A stretch of 32,000 bases of DNA from Halotia branconii CENA392 (GCF_029953635.1 NZ_CP124543.1:5828367-5860366); one strand, 5' to 3'; positions 3,001 through 29,152 are shown, counted from the first letter of the stretch. Numbers and translations are program-made. Notes: generated by a model not told the origin, from the sequence alone.

Positions 3001-6000
3001 AACCAAGCGTTTACTTCGACTTACCTCGGCTCCGCTCGGCACAAGTCTCTCAGTACAAGTTTCACCTGGGTTATCTTCACGAGCAATAACACAAGCAGCT
3101 TGTACATCCTCATGTTGGTTGAGTAATTCTTCAATTTCTCCCAATTCGATGCGGAAGCCGCGAATTTTTACCTGATTATCGATGCGTCCCAGGTATTCAA
3201 TAGTCCCATCTGTTAAATAACGCGCTAAATCGCCAGTTTTATATAATCTACTACCTTCTGCCTCCTGCCTCTGGTTGGTGAGCGCAGTCGAACCACTGCC
3301 TTCTGCCTTCTCAAACGGATTAGGAATGAATTTTGCTTTCGTCAACTCTGGACGATTAAGATAGCCTCGCGCCAACCCAGCACCGCCAATGTGCAGTTCT
3401 CCTGGCACACCCACAGGTACAGGTTGGAGATATTCATCTAAAATATAAACCTGCGCGTTAGCGATCGCACGACCAATAGGTACAACTTGTCTGTCACTAC
3501 CACGTTGACAAGTCCAGAAAGTTGAGTCAATACAAGCTTCTGTCGGCCCGTAGAGATTGTATAAATTCACATTCAGCTTGCTTAATAAATCCTCTTGCAA
3601 AGCAACTGGTAAAACTTCACCACCACAAAAGACTTGTTTGAGAGAATCGCAAGTTTCAATTCCTCCCTGTTCTAAAAGGATTCGTAATAAAGATGGAACA
3701 AATTGAACGGTAGTAACTTTTTGTTGAGCAATTACATTTAACAGGTAAGCACCATCAGCATGACCTCCAGGTTGAGCTAATAGCAACTGTCCGCCAACTA
3801 ACAAAGGGGCGTAAAATTCCCAAACAGAAGCATCAAAGCTAAAGGGAGTTTTTTGTAAAACCTTGTCTGTTTCATTTAGGGGGAATGTTGCTTGCATCCA
3901 GAACATATGGTTGCAAAGGTTGCGGTGAGTAAGCATCACCCCTTTAGGCTGACCTGTAGAACCAGAGGTGTAAATTACATAAGCCAAGTTACTAGCTTGT
4001 ACATTGGTAATGCAATTTTCCTGGCTGTACTCAGCGATTAAATGCCAGTTAGTATCTAAACAGACAAATTTTGCTTGATGCTGAGGTAAATTCTTGCTCA
4101 AATGCTGCTGAGTCAACAATACAGAAACCTGAGCATCTTGCAGCATAAAGCTCAAACGCTCTTGAGGATAATCTGGATCAAGTGGTAAGTATGCTGCACC
4201 TGCTTTGAGAATCCCCAAAAGTCCTATGACCATTTCTAAAGAACGTTCTACACAAATACCCACTAAAGTATCTGGTTTTACACCCAATGAACGCAAATAA
4301 TGAGCTAACTGATTAGCATGAGTATTCAATTCGTAGTAAGTCAGTTGTTGATTGTCAAACACCACAGCTACAGCATCAGGTGTACGCTCAACTTGTTCCT
4401 CAAATAACTGATGGATGCACTTATCTAATGGATAATCTGCTTGGGTATTGTTCCATTCAACTAATAATTGATGTTGCTCAGGTTGTGTCAGCAATGGTAA
4501 TTTTGCAATCTTTTGTTCTGGGTTAGCAACAATACCTTCGAGCAATGTTACAAAATGCCCTGCCATGCGTTTAATTGTGCTGGCATCAAATAAATCGGTG
4601 CTATATTCCCACACCCCTATCATTCCATTAGGAGTGTTCTGCATTGATAAACTCAAATCAAACTTCGCTGTTGAACTTTCTGCCGCCAACGGAGTCACAG
4701 TCAAACCAGCCAACTCTATCTCAGACATCGGCGCATTCTGAAGAGCAAACATCACTTGAAACAGTGGTGTATAGCTGAGGTCTCTTTCCGGCTGCAAAGC
4801 ATCCACCAGCATTTCAAACGGCAAATTCTGATGAGTGTATGCTTCCATTGCTGTTTCTCTAACACGAGTCAGCAATTCGCTGAAGCTGGGATTACCTGCT
4901 AAATTGCTTTGCATGACTAAGGTATTGACAAAAAAGCCAATTAACCCTTCTAGTTCAAAGCGATCGCGGTTAGCAATTGGTGTCCCTACCAAAATATCAG
5001 ACTGTCCTGTATAGCGATAAAGCAAGGTATCATAAGCCGCTAACAGCGTCATGAATAGAGTACAACCTTGCTCCTGACTCAGTTTGACTAAATTATTGGT
5101 TAATTCAACTGACAGCGCAAACTGTTGATATGAGCCTGTAAATGTCTGTTCCGCAGGTCTTGGTCTATCTGTGGGTAAAGCTAGTAAAGCAGGTGCATTT
5201 GCTAATTGCTGTTCCCAATACGAGAGTTGACTTTGCAGTACATTCCCTTGCAACCAGTTTCTCTGCCAAATAGCGAAATCTGCATACTGTATGGGTAATG
5301 GTGCTAATGGTGACGGTTGATTTTGAGAATAAGCGTTGTATAGTGCTGCTAGTTCTTGAATAAACACACCCATTGACCAACCATCACTGACAGCGTGGTG
5401 CATACAAACTAACAAGATGTGTTCTGTATCATTCAGTACTACTAATTTTGCTCTAATTAACGCTTCAGAAGCTAAGTCAAACGGTTTAATAGCTTGTTGC
5501 TGCGCTAACTGCTGCGTGGCTACTTCCTGTTGGGTTGCAGATAAATCCTTGAAATCAACTATTGATAATGTTCCCTGCGATGCACTGAGCTTGTCGAAGT
5601 GTTCCCTAATTATTTGTGTTGGCTGTCCATCAACTGTAATGAAGTTGGTACGTAAAGCTTCGTGGCGATGAATTATTTCAATGAAGCTTTGTTCTAAAGC
5701 TGCTTGATTGAGATTCCCTAGCAGACGCAAAGCGATAGGAATGTTGTATAAAGCACTATTCGGTTCTAGTTGGTCTAAAAACCACAAACGTTGTTGAGCA
5801 AACGACAGTGGTAAATCTGAATTTTTTACTTTTGGTAAAATGGGCGGTTCAGAAAGTTCTTTGTTTTGTTGCTGTAATTGTCCAATCTGATGAGCTAATT
5901 CTGCTAATGTGGCTGTAGCAAACAAATCACGCAATGGTAACTCTACTTTAAAAATGCTGCGAATGCGTGAAACTAATTGCGTTCCTAATAGCGAGTGTCC

Positions 6001-9000
6001 ACCTAATTCAAAGAAGTTATCGGTAATGCTTACTTGCGCTACTTTGAGAACTTGCGACCAAATTTGTACTAACAGTTCTTCGATTGGGTTGCGCGGTGCA
6101 ATATAGTTGTCTGTGCTGGTACTGTATGAATCTGGTGCGGGTAAAGCACGACGGTCTACTTTACCACTAGGTGTAAGTGGTAGAGAATCCAGAAATACAA
6201 AAGCACTGGGTATCATGTATTCTGGGAGTTTTGCTTTCAGATATAGCCGTAGTTCGCTAATTGTAAGTGTAGAGTCTTGATTTGCGATCGCATAAGCAAC
6301 TAAGCGTTTACTTCGACTTTGCTCAGTACAAGTATCACCAGGTGTATCTTCACGTGGAATCACGCAACAAGCTTGTATATCACTATGTTGACTGAGTGCG
6401 GCTTCAATTTCACCTAACTCAATGCGAAAACCACGTATTTTTACTTGATTATCAATACGCCCTAAGTATTCTATATTGCCATCTGGAAGATAACGCGCCA
6501 AATCCCCAGTTTTATATAATCTATTACCTTCTGCCTCCTGCCTCCGGTCACCGAGCGAAGCCGAGGTGCTACCTTCTGCTTCTTCAAAAGGATGAGGAAT
6601 AAATTTTTCTTGTGTCAATTCAGGACAGTTGAGGTAGCCTCTAGCCAAACAGACACCGCCAATATATAACTCTCCTGGTACACCGACGGGTACGGGCTGT
6701 AAATATTTATCTAATATATAAATTTCTGTATTAGCAATCGGTTTGCCAATCGGAGGAAGCAACGGCCAAGTTTCTACGGGATTAGTTAGTGTAAAAGTAG
6801 TAACCACATGGCTTTCCGATGGCCCATAATGATTGTGCAGAGTACAATCACCAAGTTTGCTGAACCATTGAGAAATTGCGGGAGTAATCTGCAACTGTTC
6901 CCCAGCCGTAATTACTTCTCGTAAATGACTAGCAAATATTTCACTATCAACAGCTACTTCCGCTAGTTGCTGTAAGGCGACAAAGGCAAGAAACAACCTT
7001 TCAACAGCTTTTTGTTTCAGAAAACCTAATAAAGCCACAGCATCACGGCGCAATTCTTCCGTAATTAACAGCAATGTGCCGCCAGAACACCAAGTAGAAA
7101 AGATTTCTTGAAAGGAGACATCAAAGCTGATGGGCGCAAATTGCAGAGTTTTTGCCCCATGAGAAATTGTTGTGTTTTGCAGTTGCCATAAAATCAGGTT
7201 GCAAAGGGGAAGCTGATTCATTGCTACTCCCTTGGGTTTCCCTGTAGAACCAGAGGTATAAATTACATAACCTAAGTTATTTGCTTGTACGCCAGATATG
7301 AGATTGTTTTTACTGAATTGGGAAATTAGTCCAGCGTCAGTATCTAAACAAACGAGCTTTGCTTGATAAGAGGCAGAATAACTCAAGGCTCTCTCTTTCC
7401 CCCTGCCCCCTGCTCCCGGTCGCCGAGCGAAGCCGAGGTGCTGCCCCCCTGCCTTTTCACACTGGGGTAGTCTGTTAATGAGTGCCTGCTGAGTTAGCAA
7501 TACTGAAACTTGAGCATCTTTGAGCATAAAACTCAGGCGTTCAGTGGGATATTCTGGGTCAATTGGTAAGTATGCACCACCCGCTTTCAGAATCCCCAAT
7601 AGTCCCACAACCATTTCTAAGGAACGTTCGACACACAACCCCACTAGTACATCAGGTTTTACACCCAATGAACGCAAATAATGAGCTAACTGGTTAGCAC
7701 GACAGTTCAATTCATGGTAAGTAAGTTTTTGATTGCCAAACTCTACTGCAACTGCATCAGGTGTATGCTGAACCTGTTCCTCAAATAATTGATGAATACA
7801 TTTATCTTGGGGATAATCGGTTTTTGTATGATTCCACTCAACGAGTAACTTTTGTTGTTCGGGTTCTGTCAGCAGAGGTAATTGGGAAATTTGCTGCTGT
7901 GGGTTAGTAACAATCCCTTCCAGCAAGGTTTGCAAATGACCAGCCATCCGTTCGATAGTGGTTGCATCAAACAAATCAGTATTGTATTGCCAAACAGCTA
8001 CTAGTCCTTGGCTAGTGTTCTGCATTAATAAAGTTAAGTCAAACTTGGCGGTTGTCCTGCCTGTCGCTAAGGGACTCACAGTTAAACCAGTTAATTCTGC
8101 TTGCGATGTGACTCCATTCTGAAGCACAAACATTACCTGAAACAGTGGTGTATAGCTGAGGTCGCGCTGTGGCTGCAAAACCTTAACCAACTCCTCAAAA
8201 GGTAAGTCTGGATGAGCGTAAGCTTCTAGTGTCAACTGGCGCACTCGATGCAGTAACTGCTTAAAACTGGGATTACCTGATAAATCGGTGCGTAAAACTA
8301 AGGTATTGGCAAAATAGCCAATTAACCTTTCAATTTCTATGCGATCGCGGTTAGCGATCGGCGTACCCACTACAATATCATCTGAGCCTGTATAGCGATA
8401 AAGTAAGGTGACAAATGCTGTAAACAGGGTCATGTATAAAGTAGCTCCCTGTTGCCTGCTGAAATTAACGAGAGCTTGGCTCAAATCCTGAGGAAGGTGT
8501 ACATATTTAAGTGCGCCTTGGAAAGTTTGAATTGCAGGTCTGGGTCTGTCTGTGGGTAATTCTAATAAGGTGGGAGCGTTTTTAAGTAGTTGCTGCCAGT
8601 AGTTTAGCTGTTTTTGCAGTACCTCTGTTTGCAACCATTTTCGTTGCCAAACAGCAAAATCAGCATACTGAATTGGTAATACAGGTAACTCTGGAGACGA
8701 ATTATGACAGATAGCTGAGTAAATGGTTGCTAACTCTCGCATTAACAAGTCCATTGACCAACCATCAATAATGATGTGGTGTATTGTTATTAACAATATA
8801 TTTTCTATATCTGTGAGTTTCAGCACAGAAACTCGAATTAAAGGAGAATTAGCGAGGTCAAAGGGTTTGGTCGTTTCTTCTATAGCTAATTGCTGAGTTG
8901 CGATCGCTCTTTCACCCTCTGGTAAATCTGTTAAATCTAATACTAATATATTTAAAGTTAAGTTGTCAGCAATTACCTGAACTGGCTGGTCGTTGATGGT

Positions 9001-9399
9001 GCGGAAGTTGGTGCGTAAAGCTTCGTGGCGAGTGATAATTTGGTTGAGGCTTTGTTCTAGTGCGGTAATGTTTAACTGACCGTGAAGTTTTAGAGCTAGT
9101 TGTTCGTTATAAAAGGGGTTATCTGGTTCTAATTGGTTCAATAACCACAGTCTTTCTTGAGCAAAAGATAGAGGTAAGTTTTGAGTGCGATCGCATTTAA
9201 TTAAAGGTGAATCTGTGTGAGTACTAATTTTATTTTTATTGTGTAGTAGTAAAATAAGTTCTGCTTTATTTTTAGCCAGTAAATCACGAGTTTCTGCTGT
9301 TAAAATTCCCTTAGGAGCATTAACACGTAACTGCTCACCATCAACCCACAACTTTACACCTTGCTTATTTAGATCGGCTACCAATTGCTCAATATTCAC
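1..9399 (-). CDS. Non-ribosomal peptide synthetase, C-terminal part beyond the window edge: docking-C-A(Pro)-T-C-A(Gln)-T-E-C(DCL, partial)
   Basis: The minus frame with codon first bases at multiples of 3 is open from 9399 to position 1; it is missing from the ORF track only because it is truncated. GTG at 9399-9397 is the first start after an in-frame TGA, with GGAGG about 10 nt upstream. My translation gives an N-terminus NIEQLVADLNKQGVKLWVDGEQLRVNAPKGILTAETRDLLAKNKAEL (TubC_N-type docking). Domains follow as C (~7890-9190, HHIIIDGWS), A (~6140-7830, hand-read code DVQFIAHVVK = Pro or methyl-Pro) and T (~5890-6110, FFELGGHSL). Then come C (~4500-5830), A (~2830-4420, code DAWQFGLIDK = Gln) and T (~2600-2810, FFELGGDSI). 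The last two are E (~1195-2555, PLTPIQHWFF, HHLIIDGVSWRIL) and a DCL-type C (1-1125, IEDIYPLSPMQQGMLF, HHILLDGWS). Confidence 0.93.
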   Translation of the reverse strand, partial: MNIEQLVADLNKQGVKLWVDGEQLRVNAPKGILTAETRDLLAKNKAELILLLHNKNKISTHTDSPLIKCDRTQNLPLSFAQERLWLLNQLEPDNPFYNEQLALKLHGQLNITALEQSLNQIITRHEALRTNFRTINDQPVQVIADNLTLNILVLDLTDLPEGERAIATQQLAIEETTKPFDLANSPLIRVSVLKLTDIENILLITIHHIIIDGWSMDLLMRELATIYSAICHNSSPELPVLPIQYADFAVWQRKWLQTEVLQKQLNYWQQLLKNAPTLLELPTDRPRPAIQTFQGALKYVHLPQDLSQALVNFSRQQGATLYMTLFTAFVTLLYRYTGSDDIVVGTPIANRDRIEIERLIGYFANTLVLRTDLSGNPSFKQLLHRVRQLTLEAYAHPDLPFEELVKVLQPQRDLSYTPLFQVMFVLQNGVTSQAELTGLTVSPLATGRTTAKFDLTLLMQNTSQGLVAVWQYNTDLFDATTIERMAGHLQTLLEGIVTNPQQQISQLPLLTEPEQQKLLVEWNHTKTDYPQDKCIHQLFEEQVQHTPDAVAVEFGNQKLTYHELNCRANQLAHYLRSLGVKPDVLVGLCVERSLEMVVGLLGILKAGGAYLPIDPEYPTERLSFMLKDAQVSVLLTQQALINRLPQCEKAGGQHLGFARRPGAGGRGKERALSYSASYQAKLVCLDTDAGLISQFSKNNLISGVQANNLGYVIYTSGSTGKPKGVAMNQLPLCNLILWQLQNTTISHGAKTLQFAPISFDVSFQEIFSTWCSGGTLLLITEELRRDAVALLGFLKQKAVERLFLAFVALQQLAEVAVDSEIFASHLREVITAGEQLQITPAISQWFSKLGDCTLHNHYGPSESHVVTTFTLTNPVETWPLLPPIGKPIANTEIYILDKYLQPVPVGVPGELYIGGVCLARGYLNCPELTQEKFIPHPFEEAEGSTSASLGDRRQEAEGNRLYKTGDLARYLPDGNIEYLGRIDNQVKIRGFRIELGEIEAALSQHSDIQACCVIPREDTPGDTCTEQSRSKRLVAYAIANQDSTLTISELRLYLKAKLPEYMIPSAFVFLDSLPLTPSGKVDRRALPAPDSYSTSTDNYIAPRNPIEELLVQIWSQVLKVAQVSITDNFFELGGHSLLGTQLVSRIRSIFKVELPLRDLFATATLAELAHQIGQLQQQNKELSEPPILPKVKNSDLPLSFAQQRLWFLDQLEPNSALYNIPIALRLLGNLNQAALEQSFIEIIHRHEALRTNFITVDGQPTQIIREHFDKLSASQGTLSIVDFKDLSATQQEVATQQLAQQQAIKPFDLASEALIRAKLVVLNDTEHILLVCMHHAVSDGWSMGVFIQELAALYNAYSQNQPSPLAPLPIQYADFAIWQRNWLQGNVLQSQLSYWEQQLANAPALLALPTDRPRPAEQTFTGSYQQFALSVELTNNLVKLSQEQGCTLFMTLLAAYDTLLYRYTGQSDILVGTPIANRDRFELEGLIGFFVNTLVMQSNLAGNPSFSELLTRVRETAMEAYTHQNLPFEMLVDALQPERDLSYTPLFQVMFALQNAPMSEIELAGLTVTPLAAESSTAKFDLSLSMQNTPNGMIGVWEYSTDLFDASTIKRMAGHFVTLLEGIVANPEQKIAKLPLLTQPEQHQLLVEWNNTQADYPLDKCIHQLFEEQVERTPDAVAVVFDNQQLTYYELNTHANQLAHYLRSLGVKPDTLVGICVERSLEMVIGLLGILKAGAAYLPLDPDYPQERLSFMLQDAQVSVLLTQQHLSKNLPQHQAKFVCLDTNWHLIAEYSQENCITNVQASNLAYVIYTSGSTGQPKGVMLTHRNLCNHMFWMQATFPLNETDKVLQKTPFSFDASVWEFYAPLLVGGQLLLAQPGGHADGAYLLNVIAQQKVTTVQFVPSLLRILLEQGGIETCDSLKQVFCGGEVLPVALQEDLLSKLNVNLYNLYGPTEACIDSTFWTCQRGSDRQVVPIGRAIANAQVYILDEYLQPVPVGVPGELHIGGAGLARGYLNRPELTKAKFIPNPFEKAEGSGSTALTNQRQEAEGSRLYKTGDLARYLTDGTIEYLGRIDNQVKIRGFRIELGEIEELLNQHEDVQAACVIAREDNPGETCTERLVPSGAEVSRSKRLVAYVVGNPQHPPTINQLRSLLSSQLPQYMIPHAFVLLESLPLTPNGKVDRRALPAPDTREGLEASFVAPRNQIEETLAQIWSEVLRVEPVGIHDNFFELGGDSILSIQILAKAKQAGLQLSLKQLFANQAIAQLAAVAGTIKAVEAEQDLVTGTLPLTPIQHWFFEQNFSNPHHFNQTFLLSVPSDTKPDLLKQALQQLLGHHDALRLRFIQSDSTWQQTYSQPDRNIAFSELDLSTLSESEQKVAIEAQSNSLQASLHLSENLVQVGFFYLGINQRARLIIVIHHLIIDGVSWRILLEDLQTAYQQLAECQKIALPAKTSSFKDWSEKLTEYAQSKTLKSEVNYWLNDSRAAVPSIPVDFTSEANTVASADTVLVCLTEEETRALLQDVPKAYNTQINDVLLTALALVLSKWTNFSSVLFNLEGHGREDIVDGVDLSRTVGWFTTIFPVLLELGATENLADALKSVKEQLRAIPNKGIGYGLLRYLSQNTEIAAQLEALPPAQISFNYLGQFDQLLNTDAWIQPASESAGYNQSLQSDRPHLLDINSIIIEESLQINWTYSKNLHQHQTIENLAQEFFNTLQKLIAHCLASENGGYTPSDFPLIKLNQQELDQLLGSLQAQNNWRNIEDIYPLSPMQQGMLFESLYAPDSGVYFEQLNCSLSGKIDAIAFEKAWQQIVAKHSIFRTAFVWKNEQKPLQVVYYQLKVTVKIHDWQDLSPQQQQQEVELFLQSQQQKGLSLSQAPLMRLNLIKLGAEKYQFIWSSHHILLDGWSLPLVFQDLLKFYQAISQGESLSEQSTRNYRDYIAWLQQQDLTLAEEFWREKLKGFTAPTPLTVDKPLSNRKQQKSSYSEQQIQLPAQVTAALQTFARQHQLTLNNLVQATWAMLLCRYSRETDVVFGATVSGRPPALTGVESMVGLFINTLPVRVQVSPETQVLDLLKDLQTQQIESEQFSYSSLVEIQGWSEVPRGKSLFESIVVFENYPVDAASATQLANHGFSID
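3013..3060. repeat. Small dispersed repeat, composite 48 nt, in frame in the A5 (Gln) A8-A9 loop
   Basis: The ends match the 24-nt form. The interior, acctcggctccgctcggcacaagtct, contains an inverted relative of the CCGAGCGAAGCCGAGG core seen at 6546 and 7418. It encodes TCTERLVPSGAEVSRS. Confidence 0.8.
3254..3307. repeat. In-frame insertion in the A5 A6-A7 loop bracketed by a 9-nt direct repeat
   Basis: CCTTCTGCC occurs at 3254-3262 and 3299-3307, also 45 nt apart, but with a different interior (ggtgagcgcagtcgaaccact). The segment encodes KAEGSGSTALTNQRQEAEG. Confidence 0.65.
5572..5604. repeat. Repeat-like segment in C5 (second NRPS) encoding EHFDKLSASQG
   Basis: It is identical to 20363-20395 in the stretch I compared and sits at the homologous position of a C domain in a different gene. 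Confidence 0.55.
6310..6333. repeat. Small dispersed repeat, 24-nt basic form, in frame in the A4 (Pro) A8-A9 loop
   Basis: ACTTCGACTTTGCTCAGTACAAGT encodes TCTEQSRS before KRLVAY. It differs from the 17891 copy at one position. Confidence 0.8.
6525..6579. repeat. In-frame insertion in the A4 A6-A7 loop bracketed by a 10-nt direct repeat
   Basis: TACCTTCTGC occurs at 6525-6534 and again at 6570-6579, 45 nt apart. Between them lies the 25-nt core GGTCACCGAGCGAAGCCGAGGTGCT (6546-6570). The segment encodes EAEGSTSASLGDRRQEAEG between PFE and NRLYKTGD. Confidence 0.7.
7399..7453. repeat. In-frame insertion in the N-terminal part of A4 with C-rich direct repeats and the 25-nt CCGAGCGAAGCCGAGG core
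   Basis: CCCCCTGCC occurs at 7399-7407 and 7445-7453. The core GGTCGCCGAGCGAAGCCGAGGTGCT (7418-7442) differs at one base from 6546-6570. The protein has about 30 extra residues (QCEKAGGQHLGFARRPGAGGRGKERALSYSAS) before YQAKLVCLD compared with the other four modules. Confidence 0.7.
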
Positions 9400-9472
9400 A
9401 GAAACATTACCTCCAACTCTTCACCTAACTTCTGCTTTACCTGTTCATTAAGGAATAAAAAAATAATTAAAA

Positions 9473-9630
9473 ACGAACCACAAAGACACAAAGAACACGA
9501 AGTAAAAAATGCTTTAAAGAGTTATTGCATAAGTCATAATAATTTCAATAAATACAGTAGACTTAAACTGTCCGTAAAAATATTTTCTGTGTTATTTATT
9601 ATTTTCTTCTTTGTGTACTTTGCGGTTCGT
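9473..9630. repeat. MITE-like element in the PKS/NRPS intergenic gap: 23/24-nt inverted repeats around an AT-rich 111-nt core
   Basis: The left arm is ACGAACCACAAAGACACAAAGAA (9473-9495). The reverse complement of the right arm (9607-9630) is ACGAACCGCAAAGTACACAAAGAA, which differs by one mismatch and one indel. Confidence 0.6.
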
Positions 9631-9731
9631 CATAATAATTTTTTGTTCACGACTTATCAGAAATTGCTTTCAATCATTCATCTTATGGGGTGGCCATCTT
9701 ATCCACCCCAAATCTTAGTCAATTTCCTTCT

Positions 9732-12700
9732 CTAAATTGCAATTTCTTCTCTCTCAATCGCACTCGAATCAGTATCGAATTTTATTTGTTTCTCCAGCCT
9801 CAACGCTATTTCAGCTATTGTAGGAGAATCAAACAGATTTGCCACAGCTAATTGAATATCAAAAGCATTCCGCAATCGAGACATTACTTGAACAGCTATT
9901 AATGAATCTCCTCCTAGTTCAAAAAAGTTATCATAAATTCCTACCTGTTTTAGCCCTAACAATTCTTGCCAAATCTCCGCAATTTTATCTTCAATCTCAT
10001 TACGGGGAGCTATATATGAGTTAGATAAATTAGGTCTTGAGTGGAATGTAGATAAACTGGCTTGCAGCTGTGATAAACTCTGTGATTTTTTTTCAAAGTT
10101 ATTGCTAAATGCTGTTTGCACAGCAGCTTGAGCCATAATAATTTGATGTTCAAAAGCTTCACTTTGAGGAAAAGCAGCAACTTCAATAAAGCCTTGATAT
10201 TGTAATGCTTCAAACCATTGTTCTTCAGTGATAAAAGGCTGACCAAGGCTGCGTCTTTTATCATCTAAAGGTTTCAGCAATAAACCCCAACTCATATCAA
10301 AATCTATCTTCGGCTGAGTTACTTCCCACAGTAAAAGGAAACCGCCAGGAGCTAATAAAGAGCGTACATGATGGAGAGTTTTATCGATGTTTTGAGTTGC
10401 GTGTAAAACATTAGAAGCTATGACTACATCAAAGCTATACTTCTCAAAACCTTGCTCAGTAGGCGACTTATCTATGTCTAGTAATTGGTAGTCAATAAAT
10501 GGATATTCTTGAAACTTTTGTTGTGCTTGAGTTAAGAAACCGCTACCAATATCTGTAAAAGTATAGCTGGTTTGTTGCGCGGGTAACACTGGTAATATTG
10601 CTTGGGTAGACATACCAGTACCCCCGCCGATTTCCAAAACTCTTATGTGAACTGATGGCGGTAATAACTTAACCATCTGTTCTAAACTAAAACGCAAAAT
10701 AGAGTTGTAATAAGCAACCAAAGGCGATTCTAAATGCGAACCGTTTTGCTTATCTTGGTAAACCAATTCATCAAAAAATTCTAATGGTTCTTGTTTACCA
10801 ACAACAACAGCAGCTAAATTGTCACCGCAGCGTTGTACTAAATCTAAATCTATAGGAGTTGTAGCAGCAAATCTTTCTTTAACTTCTGCTAAATGTTCAT
10901 CGATAAAATCTGGCGAACATGGTACAAATTCAGTAAATAATTGATGCTGTTGCTGTAGTTGTCCTTGTTCTACTAATATTTGCAACCATCTAAAAAACAA
11001 TTGTTGATAGTGGGGTATAATTTGACATTCCGTTATCAAATCTTCTCCAGAATATCTTTTTTTGCGATTACTAAAAGCCCCTAATTGTTGGAAGGTAATA
11101 TTAATATAGGCTGTACATAAACTATCTAAATACTGTTTGTTTTCCTGATATGTGACTTCATTGAGTTTTACATTTTGAGCATTGGCTTGTTTTTCACCTG
11201 CTTTTATCAGCGATGTCCATAATTTTGCTGTTGGAGGTACAATTTGCAACTCTCCCCAAGCTGTCTTTTGTGGTGGTTCAATCCAATAACGTTGGCGTTC
11301 AAAGGGATAAGTTGGTAAGGGAATCCGATAATATTCATTCTGACTATAAAATCCCAACCAATCTATCTTGACTCCAGCCAACCAAAGTTGACCTAATGTT
11401 GTAAATAAAATAGCCAAATCCGATTGTTTATCTTGCGGATGGCGTAGCGAATTTAAAATTGTTTGTGTTGCGGCTTTGTCTGGATGTCTTTTAGCTAATG
11501 TCGTGAGTGTGTGTCCTGGCCCTACTTCTAATAAGACTTGCTCAGGTGTTGCTAATAATTTCTCGATACCTTGAGCAAACAACACTGTAGAACGCAGATG
11601 TTGCGCGTAGTAGTCGGGGTTTGTGGCTTGGCTAACTGTAATCCAAGTACCTGTAAGGTTGGAAATATAAGGAAGTTTTGGAGGATTTAAAGTAACTTTT
11701 TTGACTCGCTCTGCAAATGCCTCTAAGATTGGTTCCATCATCTGAGAATGGAAAGCATGGGAAGTATGCAGACGGCGACATTCAACACTTTGATTAGCAA
11801 GCTGATGTTGTAGTGTATCTATTGCTGTTATAGAACCAGAAACTACACATTGCGATCGCTGATTAATCGCAGCTACAGAAAGCTCTGAGCCTAATAAGGA
11901 TTTTACCTTTTCTGGGGGCAAAGGAACAGAAAGCATTGCGCCAGTGGGAAGTTGCTGCATCATCTGTCCGCGTGCTGCTACCAAAGATAAAGCATCTTCT
12001 AGGGAAAAAACTCCGGCGAGGGTTGCGGCAACATATTCGCCAATACTATGACCGATCGCAGCTTGTGGTTCCACTCCCCAAGACTGCCATAATTTAGCTA
12101 GGGCATATTCAATGACAAAAATTGCGCTTTGAGCAATGCTTGTTTGTTGAAGTTGCTGTGATGCTTCAGTAATTTTGTCATCACTAGGGTAAAGAATATG
12201 GCGTAAATCTAACCCTAGTAGGGGTTTGAGAATTTCTGAGCAATAATCAACTTGTTCTTGAAATACTATCTCTGTTTGATAAATTTCCCGCGCCATGTTG
12301 ACGTACTGAGAACCTTGACCGGGAAACATAAAGACTACAGACCGTTCTGTAATCTCTGTATAGTTAGTAACAACTTGTTTTGACTCTAAATTGCTCAGAG
12401 ATTGAACAGCATCGTCTAAATTTTGGCAAATCAACATCCGCCGATGATTAAAACCCCGACGACCGCTATTAAGTGTATAAGCTAAATCACCTAAATTAAC
12501 TTCTGGATGCTCTTTTAAATGCGTGATTAAATTATCTGTCGCCTTCTCCAACGCACTAGCAGTTTTAGCCGACAAACACAATAGAAAATGTTGACTGTTG
12601 AGTGTTGACCCTTCGACTTCGCTCAGGGTCAAGGCTGAGCGGAGTCGAAGCCTTGACTTTTGACTTTTGACTTGTTTGGCTTCTTCCAAAATCACATGAG

Positions 12701-13997: not shown

Positions 13998-13999
13998 TT

Positions 14000-16900
14000 T
14001 TACCTTTTTCTCTGAGAGCGATATTGTTGTCTTGACTGTAATCTTTGATTTTTTAATGGTTTTAATTCGCTATAAGCTTGTGTGCGGTTATGATTTTGTT
14101 TGGTTGTTTCTTCTTGGTTAATTTTATTAATCAAATGTTGGCTGAAACTATGGATAGTTGGGTAATTAAACATATCAACTATGGATAGTTCTACCCCAAA
14201 TTTTTCTTGCAAATGCTGATTAATGCGTACTAGTAATAAAGAATGCCCCCCTAGTTCAAAGAAATTATGGTAAATTCCTACCTTTTCTATTGCTAAAGCT
14301 TGTTGCCAAATGCCAGCAATGATATTTTCTATCTCTGTATTTGGCATGACATAATCTGATAATTCTTGATGTAAATCTGGCTTGGGTAAAGCGTGACGGT
14401 CTACTTTACCGTTAGGTGTCAAAGGTAAAGATTCAAGAATCACAAAAGCACTTGGTAACATATACCCAGGCAATTTATCAGCCAAAAATTGACGTAGTTC
14501 ACCTGTTGTAAGTGTCACGTTTTTTTGTGTCCCTACATAGGCGATTAAACGCTTACTTCGACTCCTTTCGACTTCGCTCAAGGCAAGCCGCTCAGTACAA
14601 GTATTTCCCCCAGTTTCTTCACGAGGAATAACACAACATATCTGCACATCATTATGTTGGCTGAGTGCTGCTTCAATTTCGCCCAATTCGATGCGGAATC
14701 CGCGTATTTTTACTTGATGATCGATACGTCCTAAATATTCAATTGTGCCATCTGGTAAATAACGTGCTAAATCCCCAGTTTTATACAATTTTGGACTATT
14801 AAACGTGGCTTTGCTTATTGGGATAGTTTTTGTCTCACGCAGAGGCGCAGAGACGCAGAGATTATGAGTTTGAGAAATCAAATTTTTAATTTTTATCCCT
14901 TCATTCAGCAACGCCTGAAACGGGTTGGAGATAAATTTCTCTTGTGTCAACTCTGGACGGTTGAGGTAGCCTCGCGCTAAACCTACACCATCAATGTGTA
15001 ATTCTCCTGGTACACCCACGGGTACGGGTTGTAAATACTCGTCTAAAATGTAGATTTGTGTATTAGCGATCGCTTTTCCAATAGTGATTTTCTCATCTTC
15101 ATAGGTGCATTGTGCGATCGTTGCACAGACAGAAGCTTCCGTTGGGCCGTAGGCATTAAAGAAATTTCTACCAACAGACCATTGCTTGATTAATTCAGGC
15201 GAACAAGCTTCTCCAGCGACAATAATTGTTTGCAATGTTGGCAATTCGTCACTCGGCATAACTGCTAACGCCGATGGTGGTAAGGTGACATGGGTAATAT
15301 CATGTTTGCGTAATTGCTTAACTAATGGCTTTCCTGGGAGTAGAGAATCTTTTGTTCCTAAATACAGTGTTCCGCCTGAACCCAAAGCCATGATGATTTC
15401 CCAAATCGAAGCATCAAAACTGAAGGAAGCAAACTGGAGAACGCGACTATCAGAAGTTAAGCCAAAAGTTTGTATCTGAGCTTGAGCTAGGTTGCATAAT
15501 CCTTTATGCTCCACCATCACACCTTTCGGTCTACCTGTTGAACCGGAAGTGTAAATCAAGTTAGCTAAATTAAAGGCTCTAACTTCACTAGTTGGGTTAT
15601 CTTGATTGTTTTGGGCAATTTTATCCCATACATCATCTAAACAAACCTTGTTTGCTTGATAATCAGGAAGTCTCTCAAGCAGCCATTGTTGAGTTAGCAG
15701 CACCGAAACTTGAGCATCTTCTAACATAAAGCGCAAACGCTCTTGAGGATAATCTGGGTCAAGTGGTAGGTATGCTCCTCCTGCTTTGAGAATCCCCAAA
15801 AGTCCTATGACCATTTCTAATGAACGTTCTACACAAATACCTACTAGCACATCTGGCTTCACACCCAATGAGCGCAAGTAATGAGCTAACCCATTAGCGC
15901 GATAATTTAATTGGTGATAAGTTAGTTGTTGATTTTCAAATACTACAGCTACAGCATTAGGAATACGCTGAACCTGCTCCTCAAACAATTGATGAACGCA
16001 CTTATCTAATGGATAATCTGCTTGAGTATCATTCCATTCAACCAATAGTTGATGTTGTTCAACTGCTGTCAGCATTGGTAATTGGGAAATCTGCGCCTCT
16101 GAATTAGCAACAATACCTTCCAGCAAAGTCACAAAATGACCAGTCATGCGCTCAATAGTGGACGCATCAAACAAATCAGTATTGTATTCCCACACACCCA
16201 GCAAGCCTTGAGTCGTGTTTTCCATCGACAAAGCTAAATCAACCTTGGCTGTTTTAGTTTCTACTGGTAATGTACTAACAGTTAACCCAGCAAGCTCTAA
16301 TTCTTGTAGAGGCGCATTTTGCAGCATAAACACTACTTGGAACAGTGGTGTATGTCCCAAATCCCTTTCCGGCTGTAATGCTTCCACCAGCATTTCAAAC
16401 GGCAAATTCTGATGAGTGTATGCTTCCATTGCTGTTTCTCGCACGCGAGTCAGCAACTCATTAAAACTAGGATTACCTGCTAAATTACTCCGCATGACTA
16501 AGGTATTGACAAAAAAGCCAATTAACCCTTCTAGTTCGGAGCGATCGCGGTTTGCAATTGGTGTCCCGACTAAAATATCTGACTGTCCTGTATAGCGGTA
16601 GAGTAAGGTATCATAAGCTGCCAACAGCATCATAAACAGAGTACAACCTTGCTCTTGGCTCAGTTTCAGCAATTTATCGGTTAACGCAACTGACAGTGTA
16701 AACTCATGATGTGCGCCAACAAACGTCTGTACTGCTGGTCTTGGTCTATCTGTAGGTAATGCTAATAAAGCAGGTGCATCCTTTAACTGTTGTTCCCAAT
16801 ACGAAAGTTGATTTTGCAGTACATTCCCTTGCAACCAGTTTCTTTGCCAAATCGCAAAATCTGCATACTGAATTGGTAATGGTGCTAAAGGTGACGGTTT

Positions 16901-19900
16901 ATTTTGAGTATAAGCATTATAAAGTGCTGCCAACTCCTGGATAAACACACCCATTGACCAACCATCACTGACAGCGTGGTGCATACACACCAACAATATG
17001 TGTTCTGTTTGGGAAAGCACCACCAACGTAACTCTAATTAATGCTTCATCTGCGAGGTTAAATGGTGTAATTGCTTCTTGTTGCGCTATTTCTTGTACAG
17101 CATTTTCTGTTTCTGCTGTAGATAAATGCTGTAATTCAACAACTGATTCTATTCCCTGCGATGCACTGAGCTTGTCAAAGTGTTCCCTAATTACTTGTGT
17201 TGGTTGTCCATCAACTGTAATGAAATTAGTACGTAAGGCTTCATGACGATTAATTATTTCCTGCAAGCTCTTTTCTAAAGCTACTTGAGCAAGATTGCCT
17301 TGTAAACACAAAGCTACAGGAATGTTGTATAAAGCACTATTTGGTTCTAATTGGTCTAAAAACCATAAACGTTGTTGAGCAAAGGATAAAGGTACATGAG
17401 TCTTCTCTGTTCTGGGTACAATTGGGGGTTCACAAATTTCTATTTTTTGCTGCTGTAACTTATCAATTACTTGAGCTAATTCGGCTAATGTTGCAGTAGC
17501 AAACAACTCACGCAATGGTAGTTCTACTTTGAAAATGCTGCGGATACGTGAAACTAATTGTGTTCCTAATAGCGAATGTCCACCCAGTTCAAAGAAGTTA
17601 TCGTTAATACCTACTTGGTCTATTTTCAGCACTTGTGACCAAATTTGTACTAACAGTTCTTCGATTGGGTTGCGTGGTGCAACATATTTATCTAAGTTAC
17701 TGCTGTATAATTCCAGTGCTGGTAAAGCTTTGCGGTCTATTTTACCGTTAGGAGTTAATGGTAAATACTCTAGCAATATAAAAGCACTTGGAACCATGTA
17801 ATCTGGTAGCTTTGCTTTCAAATATTGCCGAAGTTCGCTAATTGTGGGTGTAGAGTCCTGATTTACTACCAAATAAGCAACTAGCCGTTTACTTCGACTT
17901 AGCTCAGTACAAGTCTCACGAAGATTATCTTCACGGCAAATCACACAGCAAGCTTGTATATCAATATGTTGGCTAAGTGCAGCTTCAATTTCACCTAACT
18001 CGATGCGGAAACCACGTATTTTTACTTGATTATCGATGCGTCCCAAGTATTCTATATTGCCATCTGGTAAATAACGTGCTAAATCCCCAGTTTTATATAA
18101 TTTTGAATTGTTGAAAGGATTAGGAATAAATCTTTCCTGCGTCAATTCTGGACGGTTGAGGTAGCCTTGAGCCAAGGAAGCGCCACCAATATACAACTCT
18201 CCTGGCACACCAATAGGTAGAGGCTGTAAGTTTGAGTCTAGAATGTAGGTTTTTGTGTTGGCAATAGGGCGACCAATGGGAGGTGATGCGATAGTATCTT
18301 GTGCATTAGAGATTACTAGCCCAGAAGTTGTAACAACAGTGTTCTCTGTTGGGCCATAATTATTCACCACCGTAAAAGGTATGAAAGCTGAAGGGTAATT
18401 ATGCAGCTTATCCCCACCAACTAGCATTGTTCGCAAAGCTACGTTTTCATCCCATTCTAAAGATAGTAACTTCTCTGCAAAGGGGGTTGGTAAAAAACTG
18501 ATTGTGATTTTATTTGATGTCAGCCAATTTTGTAAATCTATTGGAGAGAGAAGGGTTTCAGATGTTACCACATAAATACTTGCGCCAGTCGTGAGGTAAG
18601 GCCACAATTCCCACACCGCAGCATCAAACGCTGTTCCTGCTAATTGAGTGGCTTTGTCTAATGGGGTGATTTCAAAGTTGCATTGATGCCAAAAAATTAG
18701 ATTTAATAAACTTTGATGAGTAACTAATACCCCTTTGGGTTGACCTGTAGAACCAGAGGTATAAATTACATAAGCTAAATTATTAGCTTGAACTTCGTTG
18801 ATTGGATTATCTTGATTTAATGGGGAAATTTCTTGCCAATATGTATCTAAACAAATCAGCTTTGTTTGATAGTCAGGTAGTTGATTAACTAATTTTTCTT
18901 GAGTTAATAAAAAGGATAATTGGGCATCTGCTACCATGAAGTGCAAACGCTCTGTAGGGTAGTTTGGGTCAAGGGGTACATAAGCTCCACCTGCTTTGAT
19001 AATCCCTAAAATTCCTACGAGCATTTCTAATGAACGTTCTACACAAATACCCACGAGAGTATCTGGTTTGACACCCAATGAACGCAAGTAATGAGCTAAT
19101 TGATTAGCGCGAATATTTAACTGTTGATAAGTCAGTTTTTGATTACCAAACACCACAGCTACAGCGTCCGGTGTGCGCTCAACTTGCTCTTCAAATAACT
19201 GATGGACACATTTATCTAATGGATAATGTGCTTGAGTATTATTCCATTCAACTAATAACTGCTGTTGCTCAACTTCTGTTAGCAATGGTAATTGGGAAAT
19301 CTGCGTTTCTGGATTAGCAACAATACCTTCCAGCAAGGTGACAAAATGACCTGTCATGCGGTCAATTGTGGACGCATCAAACAAGTCAGTATTGTACTCC
19401 CACCACCCGACTAATCCTTGAGTAGTGTTCTCCATTAATAATGTTAAATCAAACTTGGCAATTGTCGTTTCTACAACTAGTGGATGGAAACTTAAGCCAG
19501 TCAACTCTACTGGAGACATCGGTACATTTTCCAGCACAAACATCACTTGAAACAAGGGTGTATGAGCTAAATTTCGTTCTGGTTGTAATGCTTCTACCAG
19601 CATTTCAAAAGGTAAATGCTGATGAGTGTATGCCTGCATTGCCATCTCTCGCACGCGATTTAGCAATTCGCTAAAGCTGGGATTTCCTGCTAAATTGCTC
19701 CGCATGACTAAGGTATTGACAAAAAAGCCAATTAACCCTTCTATTTCAGAGCGATCGCGGTTAGCAATTGGCGTTCCCACCAAAATATCTGACTGTCCTG
19801 TGTAGCGATAAAGCAGAGTATCATAAGCCGCTAACAGCGTCATAAAAAGAGTACAGCCTTGCTCTTGACTGAGTTTGACCAATTTCTCAGTTAATTCAAC

Positions 19901-22900
19901 TGACAGCGTAAACTGCTGGCGAACTCCTGTGAATGTCTGCACAGCAGGTCTTGGTCGGTCAATTGGTAAAGATAATACAGTTGGTGCGTCTTTTAGTTGC
20001 TGTTCCCAATAGGAAAGTTGATTTTGCAGTACATCCCCTTGTAACCAATGTCTTTGCCAAATGGCGAAATCTGCATACTGAATTGGCAATGGTGTTAAAG
20101 GTGACGGCTGACCTTGAGAATAAGCGTTGTATAGTGCTGCTAGTTCTTGGATAAATACACCCATTGACCAACCATCAGAGACAACATGGTGCATAAATAC
20201 TAACAAGATGTGTTCTGTATCATTCAGCACAACTAATGTTGCTCGAATTAACGCCTCAGTTGCTAAATCAAAAGGTTGAATTAGTTGTTTTTGCGCTAAC
20301 TGCTGTGTGGCGATTTCTTGTTCAGTCGCTGGTAAATCCTGGAAATCAACAATAGATAATATTCCCTGCGATGCACTGAGCTTGTCGAAGTGTTCCCTAA
20401 TTACTTGTGTTGGTTGTCCATCGACAGTGATGAAGTTAGTACGTAATGCTTCGTGGCGATGAATAATTTCAGTTAAGCTTTGCTCTAAGGCTGCTTGATT
20501 TAGACTTCCTACTAAACGCAAAGCTGTAGGGATATTGTAAAACGCACTATTCGGTTCTAATTGGTCTAAAAACCACAACCTTTGTTGAGCAAATGAAAGT
20601 GGTAAATCTGCATTCTTCACTCTTGGTAAAATTGGGGGTACAGATATTTCTAAATCTTGTTGCTGTAATTGCTCAATCGTTCGTGCTAATTCGGCTAGGG
20701 TTGTAGTAGCAAATAACTCACGCAATGGTAGTTCTAATTTGAAGCTGGTACGAATGCGTGAAAGCAATTGCGTTGCTAGTAGAGAATGTCCTCCTAATTC
20801 AAAGAAGTTATCATCAATGCTGACTTGTTCTACTTTCAGCACTTGCGACCAAATTTGTGCTAACAGTTCTTCAATTGAGTTGCGTGGAGCGATATATTTT
20901 TTTGTGCTGGTGCTGTATGATTCCGGTGCGGGTAAGGCTTTGCGGTCTATCTTACCGTTAGAGGTTAGAGGTAAAGATTCTAGCTTTACAAAAGCGTTGG
21001 GAATCATGTACTCTGGTAGCTTTGCTTTGAGGTATTGGCGCAGTTCTATAGGGGTGGGAGATTTTTCTTTAGTTACTACGTAAGCAACAAGACGTTTACT
21101 TCGACTTCTCTGCGAGACGCTACGCGAACGCTCAGTACAAGTATCCCCTGGTTCATCTTCGCGCACCAATACCACAGTTTCCCAAATATCAGGATGAGAT
21201 GCTAATAACGCCTCAATTTCTCCCAATTCGATGCGGAAACCACGAATTTTAACTTGATGGTCTATGCGTCCTAAATACTCTAACTCGCCATTAGGTAAAT
21301 AACGCGCTAAGTCTCCAGTTTTATATAGTTTTGAGTTGTGGTTAAAGGGATTAAAAATAAATTTTTGTGCTGTCAGATCAAAACGATTTAAATAACCTGT
21401 TGTCACCCCAGCACCACCGACATACATTTCACCGGGAACGCCTAGAGGGACTGGTTGAAGATATTCATCCAGCACATACACCTGTAAATCGGGTATGGGA
21501 CGACCGATAACGCTGGCTGTACTATGTAAATCGGCTTTACTCAAGGGACGATAGGTAACGTGTACGGTGGTTTCTGTAATTCCGTACATATTCACTAATT
21601 GCGGTTTGCTGTCTCCATGTCGCTCAAACCAAGGTTGTAAACTCTGGATTTCTAAGGCTTCTCCGCCAAATATTACTAGGCGTAAGTTTAATTCGCCTGT
21701 TGTTATTCCTGAGTTTTCGGCTTGAATTAGTTGGCGGAATGCTGAGGGTGTCTGATTGAGAACGGTGACTTTTTCTTGACACAATAACTCATAGAAAGAT
21801 TCTGGAGAACGAGTAATTAAATATGGCACAATTACTAATCTTCCACCGTATAACAAAGCACCCCAAATTTCCCACACAGAGAAATCAAAGGCGTAGGAAT
21901 GGAACATTGTCCACACATCGTCTTGATTGAAGTGATACCAAGCATCTGTAGCAGCAAATAACCGCACGACATTGTAGTGGTTGACTAATGTACCTTTGGG
22001 GTTTCCTGTTGAACCTGATGTGTAGATGATGTAGGCTAAATTTTGCCTTGTGGAGTTACTAACAGGATTTTCCTGACTTGCTCTAGAAATAATCTCCCAA
22101 TCTTTATCTAAGCAGACAACACGGGCATGATGCTCTGGTAAATCAGCTAGCAATTTCTCTTGAGTCAAAAGCACTGAAACTTTTGAATCATCAAGCATAT
22201 ATAATAAGCGATCGCTAGGATAATCTGGGTCAAGTGGCACATAAGCTCCACCTGCTTTAAGTATGCCTAGTAGTCCGACTATCATTTCTAATGAGCGTTC
22301 TACACACAAACCCACTAAAGTATCTGCACTTACACCCAATGTTTTGAGGTGATGTGCTAATTGATTAGCGCGAGTATTTAATTGATGGTATGTCAGTTTT
22401 TGCTGTTCATATACAACTGCTACAGCATCGGGTGTACGTTGAACTTGCTCTTCAAACAATTGATGAATGCATTTATCCGAGGGATAATTCGCTTGAGTAT
22501 CATTCCATTGAGTTAATAACTGTTGTTGTTCAGGCTGTGTTAGCAATGGTAATTGCCAAATCCTCTCTTCTGGATTGCTGACAATTCCTGCTAGCAAAGT
22601 TTGAAAATGTCCAGCCATCCGAGTAATTGTAGCTGGCTCAAATAGGTCAGAATTATACTCTAAACTTGCAGTTAGTCCTTGCTCAGTCTCGGTCATCAGC
22701 AAGGTTAAATCAAACTTAGCTGTCGGATTTTCTATTTCTAGCTGAGTCAGAGATAAACCAGGTAATTCCAATTTTCCCGGAGGTGTATTCAGCAAGACGA
22801 ACATTACCTGAAACAATGGAGAGTAGTTCAGGTTTCTTTCTGGCTGTAAGGCTTCGACTACTTGCTCAAATGGTACATCTTGATGAGAGTATGCTTCTAT

Positions 22901-24050: not shown

Positions 24051-24302
24051 TCAGCCTTGCTTGGCATTTATTAACTGCACAATCATTTCTATACTTTGGA
24101 AATTTTCTGCATTAATATCATTAACTGCAAATCTAATACCAAAATTACTCTGTAATTTTAAAACTAGTGTCATAGCATTAACAGAATCTAGACCCAGGCT
24201 AAAGAGATTACTAGATTCTGTTAAATCTTCTCTATTAATATTTGGCAATATATTTAAAACTATATTTTTAGTTTTTTCTGTAATTAAATCAATAGTTTTC
24301 AT
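24051..24302 (-). CDS. Stand-alone acyl carrier protein
   Basis: 83-aa ORF with the phosphopantetheine-site motif LGLDSVNAM (Ser40, nt 24183-24185). Its ATG overlaps the ligase stop codon in an ATGA arrangement (24299-24302). It lies 61 nt upstream of the NRPS start. Confidence 0.85.
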   Translation of the reverse strand: MKTIDLITEKTKNIVLNILPNINREDLTESSNLFSLGLDSVNAMTLVLKLQSNFGIRFAVNDINAENFQSIEMIVQLINAKQG

Positions 24303-25837: not shown

Positions 25838-25874
25838 CACTGCCTCAATATTTAAAAATGATCGCACTCAAAAT

Positions 25875-29057: not shown

Positions 29058-29152
29058 GGATAATTGTAGACAAATAACAAATTATATTTATATTTTTTAA
29101 TTAAAATTAATTGAAGATTATTAACATTGGAGAACTAAGGATGTAAAACCTA

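Follow-up and report, generated by a model that had tools for sequence, protein, structure and literature searches.

The 32-kb stretch of the Halotia branconii CENA392 genome analyzed in this work (the window, i.e., the whole 32,000 nucleotides) carries two nonribosomal peptide synthetase (NRPS) genes whose five adenylation (A) domains all contain a short translated segment, TCTE..SRS. Our results indicate that these segments are very probably lineage-specific insertions of a 24-nt miniature dispersed element, resembling the small dispersed repeats (SDR) of Nostoc, into the H. branconii NRPS genes. The target was located at the junction between the D/E/N codon and the K codon of PGD^KRLVAY (the caret marks the insertion point), in a beta-hairpin turn of the C-terminal A subdomain, and the copies revealed precise, oriented insertion next to an A, with no target-site duplication, of a folded module that encodes nothing. 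Further, we tentatively propose that the 24-mer of Nostocales belongs, as one branch, to a superfamily of ~24-nt structured modules that spans several phyla and has not been described before. Its members combine a variable 5' hexamer with an invariant GAGCGNAGYCGA loop closed by a covarying 3-bp stem; a widely conserved enzyme would insert them precisely and in fixed orientation, and they would colonize permissive enzyme loops, repeatedly including the same NRPS A-domain junction, in different phyla and in both orientations.

The element in the five adenylation domains

On the coding strand the element reads ACTTGTACTGAGCnAAGTCGAAGT, is translated as TCTExSRS, and is present in the five A domains (5/5), which are distributed over two NRPS genes with a polyketide synthase (PKS) gene in between (Table 1). 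It is preceded by RE(D/E)xxG(D/E/N) and followed by KRL(V/I)AY, within the interval between core motifs A8 and A9, and each of the five inserts starts at codon phase 0. These findings confirm the initial annotation, which described an identical 24-nt element at an identical codon position in five A domains of two genes, with the reading frame and the TCTE..SRS translation preserved in every copy. The pattern ACTTCGACTTNGCTCAGTACAAGT, for which zero matches are expected in the shuffled window, was found exactly as a bare 24-mer in modules 2 and 4 (17891-17914 and 6310-6333) and with an interior in module 1 (21098-21142), the coordinates previously given for these three copies being exact. The copies in modules 3 and 5 (14555-14602 and 3013-3060) retain both ends with 1 mismatch each, located in the left end of module 3 (ACTTCGACTC) and in the right end of module 5 (TCTCAGTACAAGT). 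No further copies of the element halves or of the interiors were detected within the 32-kb window; a core-like match with 3 mismatches at 21150-21173 was dismissed as a chance occurrence.

Orthologous clusters were identified using the PKS gene as bait, and 10 kb on either side of each ortholog were compared; protein searches with 201-aa or 72-aa A-subdomain queries returned matches to short fragments only. PKS orthologs with 90% identity were found in Tolypothrix sp. PCC 7910 (L251) and in Calothrix (L252). The 200-nt flanks upstream and downstream of the five sites are 88-96% identical between the window and both genomes, where they run contiguously without a gap, all five junctions being empty, and the inserts of 45, 24, 48, 24 and 48 nt were exclusive to the window in a three-way alignment. 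Halotia displays 9 intact family elements throughout the 24-kb region, and none was counted in any of the three relatives compared, namely Nostoc piscinale CENA21, Tolypothrix PCC 7910 and Calothrix. One sequence considered as an empty ortholog of module 5, P0004, turned out to be a mosaic and was superseded by the clusters found through the PKS. In addition, the base that follows the module 2 insert on the coding strand (window position 17890) is A (AAA, Lys), and C (CAA, Gln) in both empty orthologs, reflecting either an ancestral Lys or an insertion event tied to A.

Protein-level comparisons located the insert within the A-domain fold. TCTExSRS was found in none of the 120 best homologues retrieved with A-domain 4, nearly all of which display REDxPGD-KRLVAY, with unrelated short inserts in a few. 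When aligned to LgrA, a gap of 16 residues falls exactly over the module 5 insert, and other solved A domains deposited in PDB are likewise gapped. The AlphaFold model of the module 5 subdomain, which matches NRPS A-domain structures, places the insert (residues 132-147) as a turn between strands 117-126 and 148-156, with a predicted confidence score (pLDDT) of ~50. The element therein adds 8 residues (15-16 if nested), free of in-frame stop codons, to a turn of low confidence in the model. The reading of the segment as a mobile element instead of a native loop, already advanced in the initial annotation, is hence backed by empty sites in orthologous NRPS genes, by homologues with an uninterrupted PGD-KRLVAY and gapped solved structures, and by the placement of the loop in the model.

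Dispersal and target preference

A scan with the 24-mer, keeping one genome per species (loci L001-L120), retrieved at least 120 loci, and the statements that follow apply to the matches listed. Cyanobacteria account for 87 of these loci and non-cyanobacterial sequences for 33. The former mostly belong to Nostoc, and also to Brasilonema, Calothrix, Anabaena, Nodularia and Komarekiella, among others; many copies may be found per genome (e.g., at least 11 in Nostoc sp. NMS2), mostly in short open frames or noncoding DNA. Further copies outside NRPS genes, on which the mobile-element reading depended, are therefore plentiful, and were found in heptamer arrays, nested within the element itself, and in other genes. 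A variant of the 24-mer is carried by plasmid pNPUN02 of Nostoc punctiforme PCC 73102. The exact 24-mer was also identified in isolates of Bacteroidota (Cecembia lonarensis, Algoriphagus halophytocola with a complete genome, Crocinitomix catalasitica and Thalassobellus citreus), and in metagenome-assembled genomes (MAGs) labelled as Chloroflexi, Ignavibacteria, Thermodesulfobacteriota and others. Seven IMG/VR viral contigs (L124-L130) carry the exact 24-mer as well.

For 128 dispersed copies with enough flanking sequence, the base at the 3' side of the element is A in 122, target-site duplications are absent both at these 128 copies and at the five window sites, and no target bases were lost upon insertion. 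When the 24 nt were excised in silico from array copies, a perfect 7-nt period was restored (GGGC^ATTGGGC, GGTC^ATTGGTC, ACGA^ATTACGA and CAAA^ATCCAAA), and the orientation relative to the heptamer is constant across these copies. In a separate classification of 129 copies, 47 were in heptamer arrays, 19 were nested in a family member at GAGCG^AAG, 4 occupied the NRPS site and 59 were located elsewhere.

In C. lonarensis, a larger repeated unit around the 24-mer is suggested by two matches to the Rfam family Acido-Lenti-1 (L031 2619-2670 and L077 314-365) which are below threshold (27.7-30 bits against a gathering score of 37), and lie ~100 nt away from the 24-mer copies, not on the element. 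These were the only matches in an Rfam search of the window and of the element-rich loci, in which no family was assigned to the motif.

Structure of the superfamily

The superfamily was defined from the additional copies in the examined loci together with a metagenome scan (L131-L250) in which only the loop was fixed and the flanks were arbitrary. Its members share a layout consisting of a variable 5' hexamer, three bases, GAGCGNAGYCGA (12 nt) and three complementary bases; the hexamer is ACTTGT in Nostocales, TGTCAT being the commonest elsewhere. Over 89 distinct sequences, the stem formed by positions 7-9 and 22-24 is paired in 94%, with 115 double changes and more than 10 stem types; none of 500 shuffles reached the observed covariation, and slid controls collapsed. 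Regarding the imperfect terminal inverted repeats claimed in the initial annotation, they amount to ACTT/AAGT only and are unsupported by the variants, the covarying pairing being that of 7-9 with 22-24.

The core motif was found in contigs of 31-70% GC, and an 18-nt core is present on Sphingomonas plasmids (L258), where inverted doublets occur. Beyond cyanobacteria, the exact 24-mer or the core was also observed in MAGs labelled as Desulfuromonadales and Daviesbacteria, and in some taxa the module constitutes the ends of ~125-nt palindromic elements (L145). On a Trichlorobacter lovleyi plasmid (L259, 3001-3021), a core copy, GCCTGC ACT GAGCGAAGTCGA AGT, is located inside the open reading frame (ORF) of an IS91-family (Y2/HUH) transposase that adjoins a class-1 integron remnant (sul1, qacEdelta1); it was considered as a lead to the parent element, but seems to be one more intragenic copy.

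Nesting and the interiors

The three interiors of the window are all located between positions 14 and 15 of the outer element (GAGCG^AAG), and would represent further elements inserted into it at this point. The initial annotation regarded them as unrelated to each other, which holds for the 21-nt interior of module 1, a member of a different family, and does not for those of modules 3 and 5, which are both related to the outer element and 24 nt in length. The interiors are dispersed elements in their own right. With up to 3 mismatches, the module 1 21-mer was identified at ten places in the examined loci, including one (L048) where it is nested in the 24-mer outside NRPS genes, forming a composite that is 1 nt off that of module 1. 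L018 holds an exact copy of the module 5 interior, and in L023 and L078 the 24-mer encloses versions of it with 2 mismatches; L063 has a nested relative of the module 3 interior, and L076 a triple nest. Therein, the centre of the element as a repeated secondary target, another claim of the initial annotation, is supported insofar as nesting at this point is a general property, with the qualification that composites already assembled are also moved as a whole. Unrelated places share identical nested composites (L023 and L078; L048 and window 21098-21142; L105 at 822 and 4227), from which nests seem to be mobilized as units while their outer ends are intact. Since composites also move as units, the window interiors arrived either later than the outer copies or together with them.

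Loop position 14 is G in 119 of the 128 dispersed copies. This G may be needed for GAGCG^AAG to serve as secondary target, and copies mutated at it would then escape nesting. Within the window, the un-nested copies have T (module 2, 17903) or A (module 4, 6322) at this position, and the nested copies have G.

Probable independent hits and alternative origins

The same NRPS junction is filled in other lineages, including two A domains each in Nostoc NMS7 and Nostoc UHCC 0252, and one each in Nostoc KVJ20, Tolypothrix NIES-4075, Nostoc DSM 114159 and Brasilonema CT11, the latter in the module 3 ortholog. The 13 ACTTGT-type copies at this junction share one orientation (13/13). Conversely, three metagenome NRPS fragments of 55-58% GC (L122, L123 and L215) carry a related 24-nt element at GAT^AAA/G in the opposite orientation, e.g., CCCTCGACTGCGCTCGGGACAGGC, translated as PSTALGTG. 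Five of the six frames of the element contain no stop codon, and as only stop-free, phase-compatible inserts in a permissive turn would survive, the hot spot is in part a survival filter; it would result from a target preference multiplied by strong selection, with only stop-free, in-frame inserts in a permissive loop persisting. In other Nostocales, a second recurrent A-domain site was observed at IVPQPxQ^T, ~8 codons after KRLVAY (L013, L093, L105 and L255), holding either a 72-nt triple nest or the 24-mer in bare form, and empty in the five window modules.

From these observations we infer that a hot spot was hit independently five times and that gene conversion did not spread the copies, as indicated by the flanks that track their orthologs, by the junction being filled again in other lineages, and by the relatives in opposite orientation. 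Both scenarios had been left side by side in the initial annotation, and it is the hot spot that the data favor. A single insertion, subsequently spread to four modules by ectopic gene conversion or recombination of A-subdomain cassettes, appears very unlikely, even though the A1-A2 and A7-A10 parts are alike among modules (70-90%) as compared to the cores (30-55%), which is frequently attributed to recombination, and two A domains of one Brasilonema gene share an identical 72-nt triple nest. Between modules, the element matches at 21-23 of 23 fixed positions (P from 8e-8 to 8e-3 per pair), and the 60 nt on each side are only 45-81% identical, whereas each module's flanks follow its own orthologs of Tolypothrix and Calothrix (88-96%) up to the junction. 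Since the flanks follow the orthologs and not the paralogs, conversion tracts would need to be confined to the insert, ending within 0-3 nt of the element, four times over; moreover, the three nested copies hold three different interiors, and the junction is occupied in other lineages and, by other family members, in reverse. Also very unlikely is an ancestral origin of the inserts followed by their precise loss from Tolypothrix PCC 7910, Calothrix and N. piscinale. Precise excision is possible for a peel-and-paste element, and filled module 1 orthologs are found in three lineages (Halotia, NIES-4075 and DSM 114159) which form no common group; however, for modules 2, 4 and 5 every ortholog picked up by the scan is empty, module 3 is filled only in the Brasilonema ortholog and with a different interior, the three relatives each lack all 9 intact elements of the 24-kb region, for two window-only elements the surrounding heptamer arrays exist in the relatives without the element, and the element ends have diverged far less than the flanks. 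As for TCTExSRS being a native, functionally selected feature of the A8-A9 loop, its presence in frame and in one orientation in all five modules would be expected, but its absence from the orthologs and from the 120 best homologues, the low confidence of the predicted loop, and the occurrence of the identical DNA 24-mer mostly outside NRPS genes, in short open frames or noncoding DNA, and in other phyla render this explanation practically negligible.

Concerning the secondary-target step only, it is quite possible that the interiors were not later arrivals and that pre-assembled composites were inserted at the NRPS junction as single units. The same composite is found in different heptamer contexts of one genome (L023 and L078), the non-NRPS composite of L048 is within 1 nt of that of module 1, and the identical 72-nt nests of Brasilonema lie between flanks that are only ~64% identical. 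Against unit insertion, bare outer copies at the junction are common (modules 2 and 4, L035, L061, L253 and L255), and the Brasilonema CT11 module 3 ortholog holds its different interior between positions 17 and 18 of the same outer element, which fits sequential nesting in place. Several observations also weigh against the interpretation of independent insertions of a mobile element. The Brasilonema nests just mentioned show that inter-module copying, or the movement of composites as units, does occur. Beyond the following A, the target consensus is weak, and no consistent hairpin-loop target was obtained when the empty NRPS sites were folded as single strands; neither accounts for a mechanistic hot spot as opposed to a survivable site. 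Stem mismatches (12 G.T and 5 A.C) display no significant strand preference, and the count of copies for H. branconii covers the 32-kb window only. Lastly, the mobility itself is deduced from comparative data.

Proposed mobility and relation to known repeats

The conserved GAGCGNAGYCGA, the covarying stem and the variable hexamer point to a single-stranded folded intermediate that would be recognized in trans by an enzyme which is conserved and which the element itself does not encode. The leading candidate, though tentative, is a peel-and-paste transfer of single-strand DNA by an HUH/Y1-type enzyme (RAYT or IS200/IS605-like), with which the lack of duplication, the fixed orientation, the fixed adjoining base and the hairpin are consistent. 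An RNA-mediated route is also conceivable and ranks next, and some other mobility mechanism seems less likely. An RNA-mediated route was reportedly proposed for the small dispersed repeats by Elhai et al. in 2008. In that study (Elhai, Kato, Cousins, Lindblad and Costa, in Genome Research), the repeats SDR1-8 of Nostoc were reportedly 21-27 nt in length and were proposed to be perhaps the smallest mobile elements.

The likeness of the 24-mer to SDR, put forward in the initial annotation, extends to every behavioral feature considered. The outer element and two interiors are 24 nt in length, and the module 1 interior is 21 nt, against 21-27 nt for SDR; further common traits are dispersal in Nostocaceae, precise insertion, embedding in heptamer arrays, self-nesting, and a hairpin with compensatory changes. 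The resemblance is one of behavior. What did not hold is the confinement to Nostocaceae, as 33 of the 120 loci are non-cyanobacterial, among the at least 120 listed. In this regard, SDR5 has been described as inserted between nucleotides 3 and 4 of HIP1 (PMC4390886), and a survey of HIP1-rich cyanobacterial genomes recovered SDR-like repeats from none outside Nostocaceae (PMC5861425), a range that the matches obtained herein clearly exceed.

Similarities to other systems are partial. Rickettsia palindromic elements (RPE) are ~100-150 bp in length, restricted to Rickettsia and in frame in many protein genes (Ogata et al., 2000, as given in PMC10969869), and share with the 24-mer a selfish, in-frame, translated nature and their tolerance at fold-compatible positions; repeated hits on one codon junction in paralogous domains, as well as nesting, are not reported for RPE in this source. 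Repetitive extragenic palindromic (REP) sequences and REPINs, associated with RAYT, are likewise short non-autonomous hairpins that lack target duplications and presumably move as single-stranded DNA (PMC3116915, PMC3733652), and their inverted doublets recall the PKS pair at 12600-12651 and those of Sphingomonas. In contrast, REPs have a GTAG/CGTC tag beside a 20-40-nt palindrome, and the 24-mer lacks such a tag, displays a 3-bp stem and a conserved 12-nt loop, is frequently intragenic, and keeps the same sequence across phyla, whereas REPs are largely genome-specific (PMC3116915, PMC3733652). [quoted passage not shown]

The literature searched by sequence and by key word, the Elhai 2008 study being outside the search, contained nothing describing the 24-mer, TCTERSRS or the core, nor any report of a recurrent insertion site in NRPS A domains. 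Interrupted A domains, with methyltransferase or other domains between a8-a9 or a2-a3, were reportedly described by Labby et al. in 2015 and Mori et al. in 2018. The same regions are tolerant in the window, namely a8-a9 (five inserts) and a2-a3 (7368-7461), but the interrupting segments differ: in one case they are functional domains that were gained through gene fusion and span several hundred residues, and in the other, translated repeats of 8-31 residues with no evident function. Overall, elements of this kind are known; the repeated use of one NRPS junction, the recent Halotia burst and a superfamily spanning several phyla appear to be new.

The movement of 21-27-nt repeats has been an open question since 2008, and the locus described herein provides a clean before/after pair of five filled and five empty sites in orthologs more than 90% identical. 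This comparison, together with the defined junction and the cross-phylum core, makes phylogenetic profiling for the enzyme feasible; if our interpretation is correct, the recent burst in H. branconii, as compared to the corresponding 24 kb of Tolypothrix PCC 7910 with no copy at all, would constitute a natural system for finding it. Furthermore, the PGD^KRLVAY turn, the NPF..LYKTGD loop and the A2-A3 loop represent naturally validated permissive insertion sites in A domains, and the inserts explain the odd segments of 8-31 residues that disturb NRPS alignments and specificity predictions in Nostocales.

Other features of the window

Besides the five inserts at the A8-A9 junction, four extra inserts that belong to other subfamilies were observed, mostly in opposite orientation and all translated in frame (Table 1); in the three-way alignment, two of them were delimited as ~6545-6566 and 12600-12648. 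The inverted pair in the PKS gene adjoins GTCAAAA heptamers, and its translation includes ..RLRLRSALTLSEVEG...

Table 1. Genes, A8-A9 inserts and further repeats in the 32-kb window of H. branconii
Feature	Position	Strand	Remarks
NRPS gene, modules 4 and 5	1-9420	minus	Continues beyond the window; hosts 2 A8-A9 inserts and 3 further family inserts
Module 5 A8-A9 insert, 48 nt	3013-3060	minus	Outer element 3047-3060 (C13A) and 3013-3022; translation TCTERLVPSGAEVSRS
Module 5 interior, 24-nt family member	3023-3046	minus	ACTTGTGCCGAGCGGAGCCGAGGT
Family member in heptamer array, NPF..LYKTGD loop of module 5	3271-3294	plus	CTGGTTGGTGAGCGCAGTCGAACC; opposite to the gene; window-only, array present in L251
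Module 4 A8-A9 insert, bare 24-mer	6310-6333	minus	ACTTGTACTGAGCAAAGTCGAAGT; translation TCTEQSRS
Family member in heptamer array, NPF..LYKTGD loop of module 4	6544-6567	plus	CCGGTCACCGAGCGAAGCCGAGGT; window-only, array element-free in L252
93-nt insert, A2-A3 loop of module 4	7368-7461	plus	Window-only; GGCAGGG-type heptamers around CCGGTCGCCGAGCGAAGCCGAGGT (7416-7439)
PKS gene (KS-AT-MT-ACP)	9732-13997	minus	Between both NRPS genes; product 100% identical to a Halotia branconii protein
Inverted pair of family members, KS-AT linker of the PKS	12600-12651	12610-12633 minus, 12628-12651 plus	Window-only 48-nt insert
NRPS gene, modules 1-3 (C-A-T x3)	14000-23989	minus	Hosts 3 A8-A9 inserts
Module 3 A8-A9 insert, 48 nt	14555-14602	minus	Outer element 14589-14602 and 14555-14564, A15G; translation TCTERLALSEVERSRS
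Module 3 interior, 24-nt family member	14565-14588	minus	GCTTGCCTTGAGCGAAGTCGAAAG
Different in-frame element of ~100 nt, NPF..LYKTGD loop of module 3	14792-14898		Window-only
Module 2 A8-A9 insert, bare 24-mer	17891-17914	minus	ACTTGTACTGAGCTAAGTCGAAGT; translation TCTELSRS
Other window-only insert	20365-20383		From the three-way alignment
Module 1 A8-A9 insert, 45 nt	21098-21142	minus	Outer 24-mer split 14+10 (21129-21142, 21098-21107); translation TCTERSRSVSQRSRS
Module 1 interior, 21 nt	21108-21128	minus	TTCGCGTAGCGTCTCGCAGAG
Acyl carrier protein (ACP)	24051-24302	minus	Upstream of the NRPS
Fatty acyl-AMP ligase (FAAL)	24299-25867	minus	Upstream of the NRPS

Further along the window, a LamG-patatin protein is encoded on the plus strand at 26600-28561, and a second gene, of FAAL-PKS type, begins at 29147 on the same strand. 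The ~100-nt element in module 3 reads ..AAAAATTTGATTTCTCAAACTC..TCTCTGCG.CTCTGCG.CTCTGCGTGAGACAAA..AATAAGCAA.GCC, and a close relative was found as a Tolypothrix-only insert at another position of module 1 (L251, ~3040-3135).

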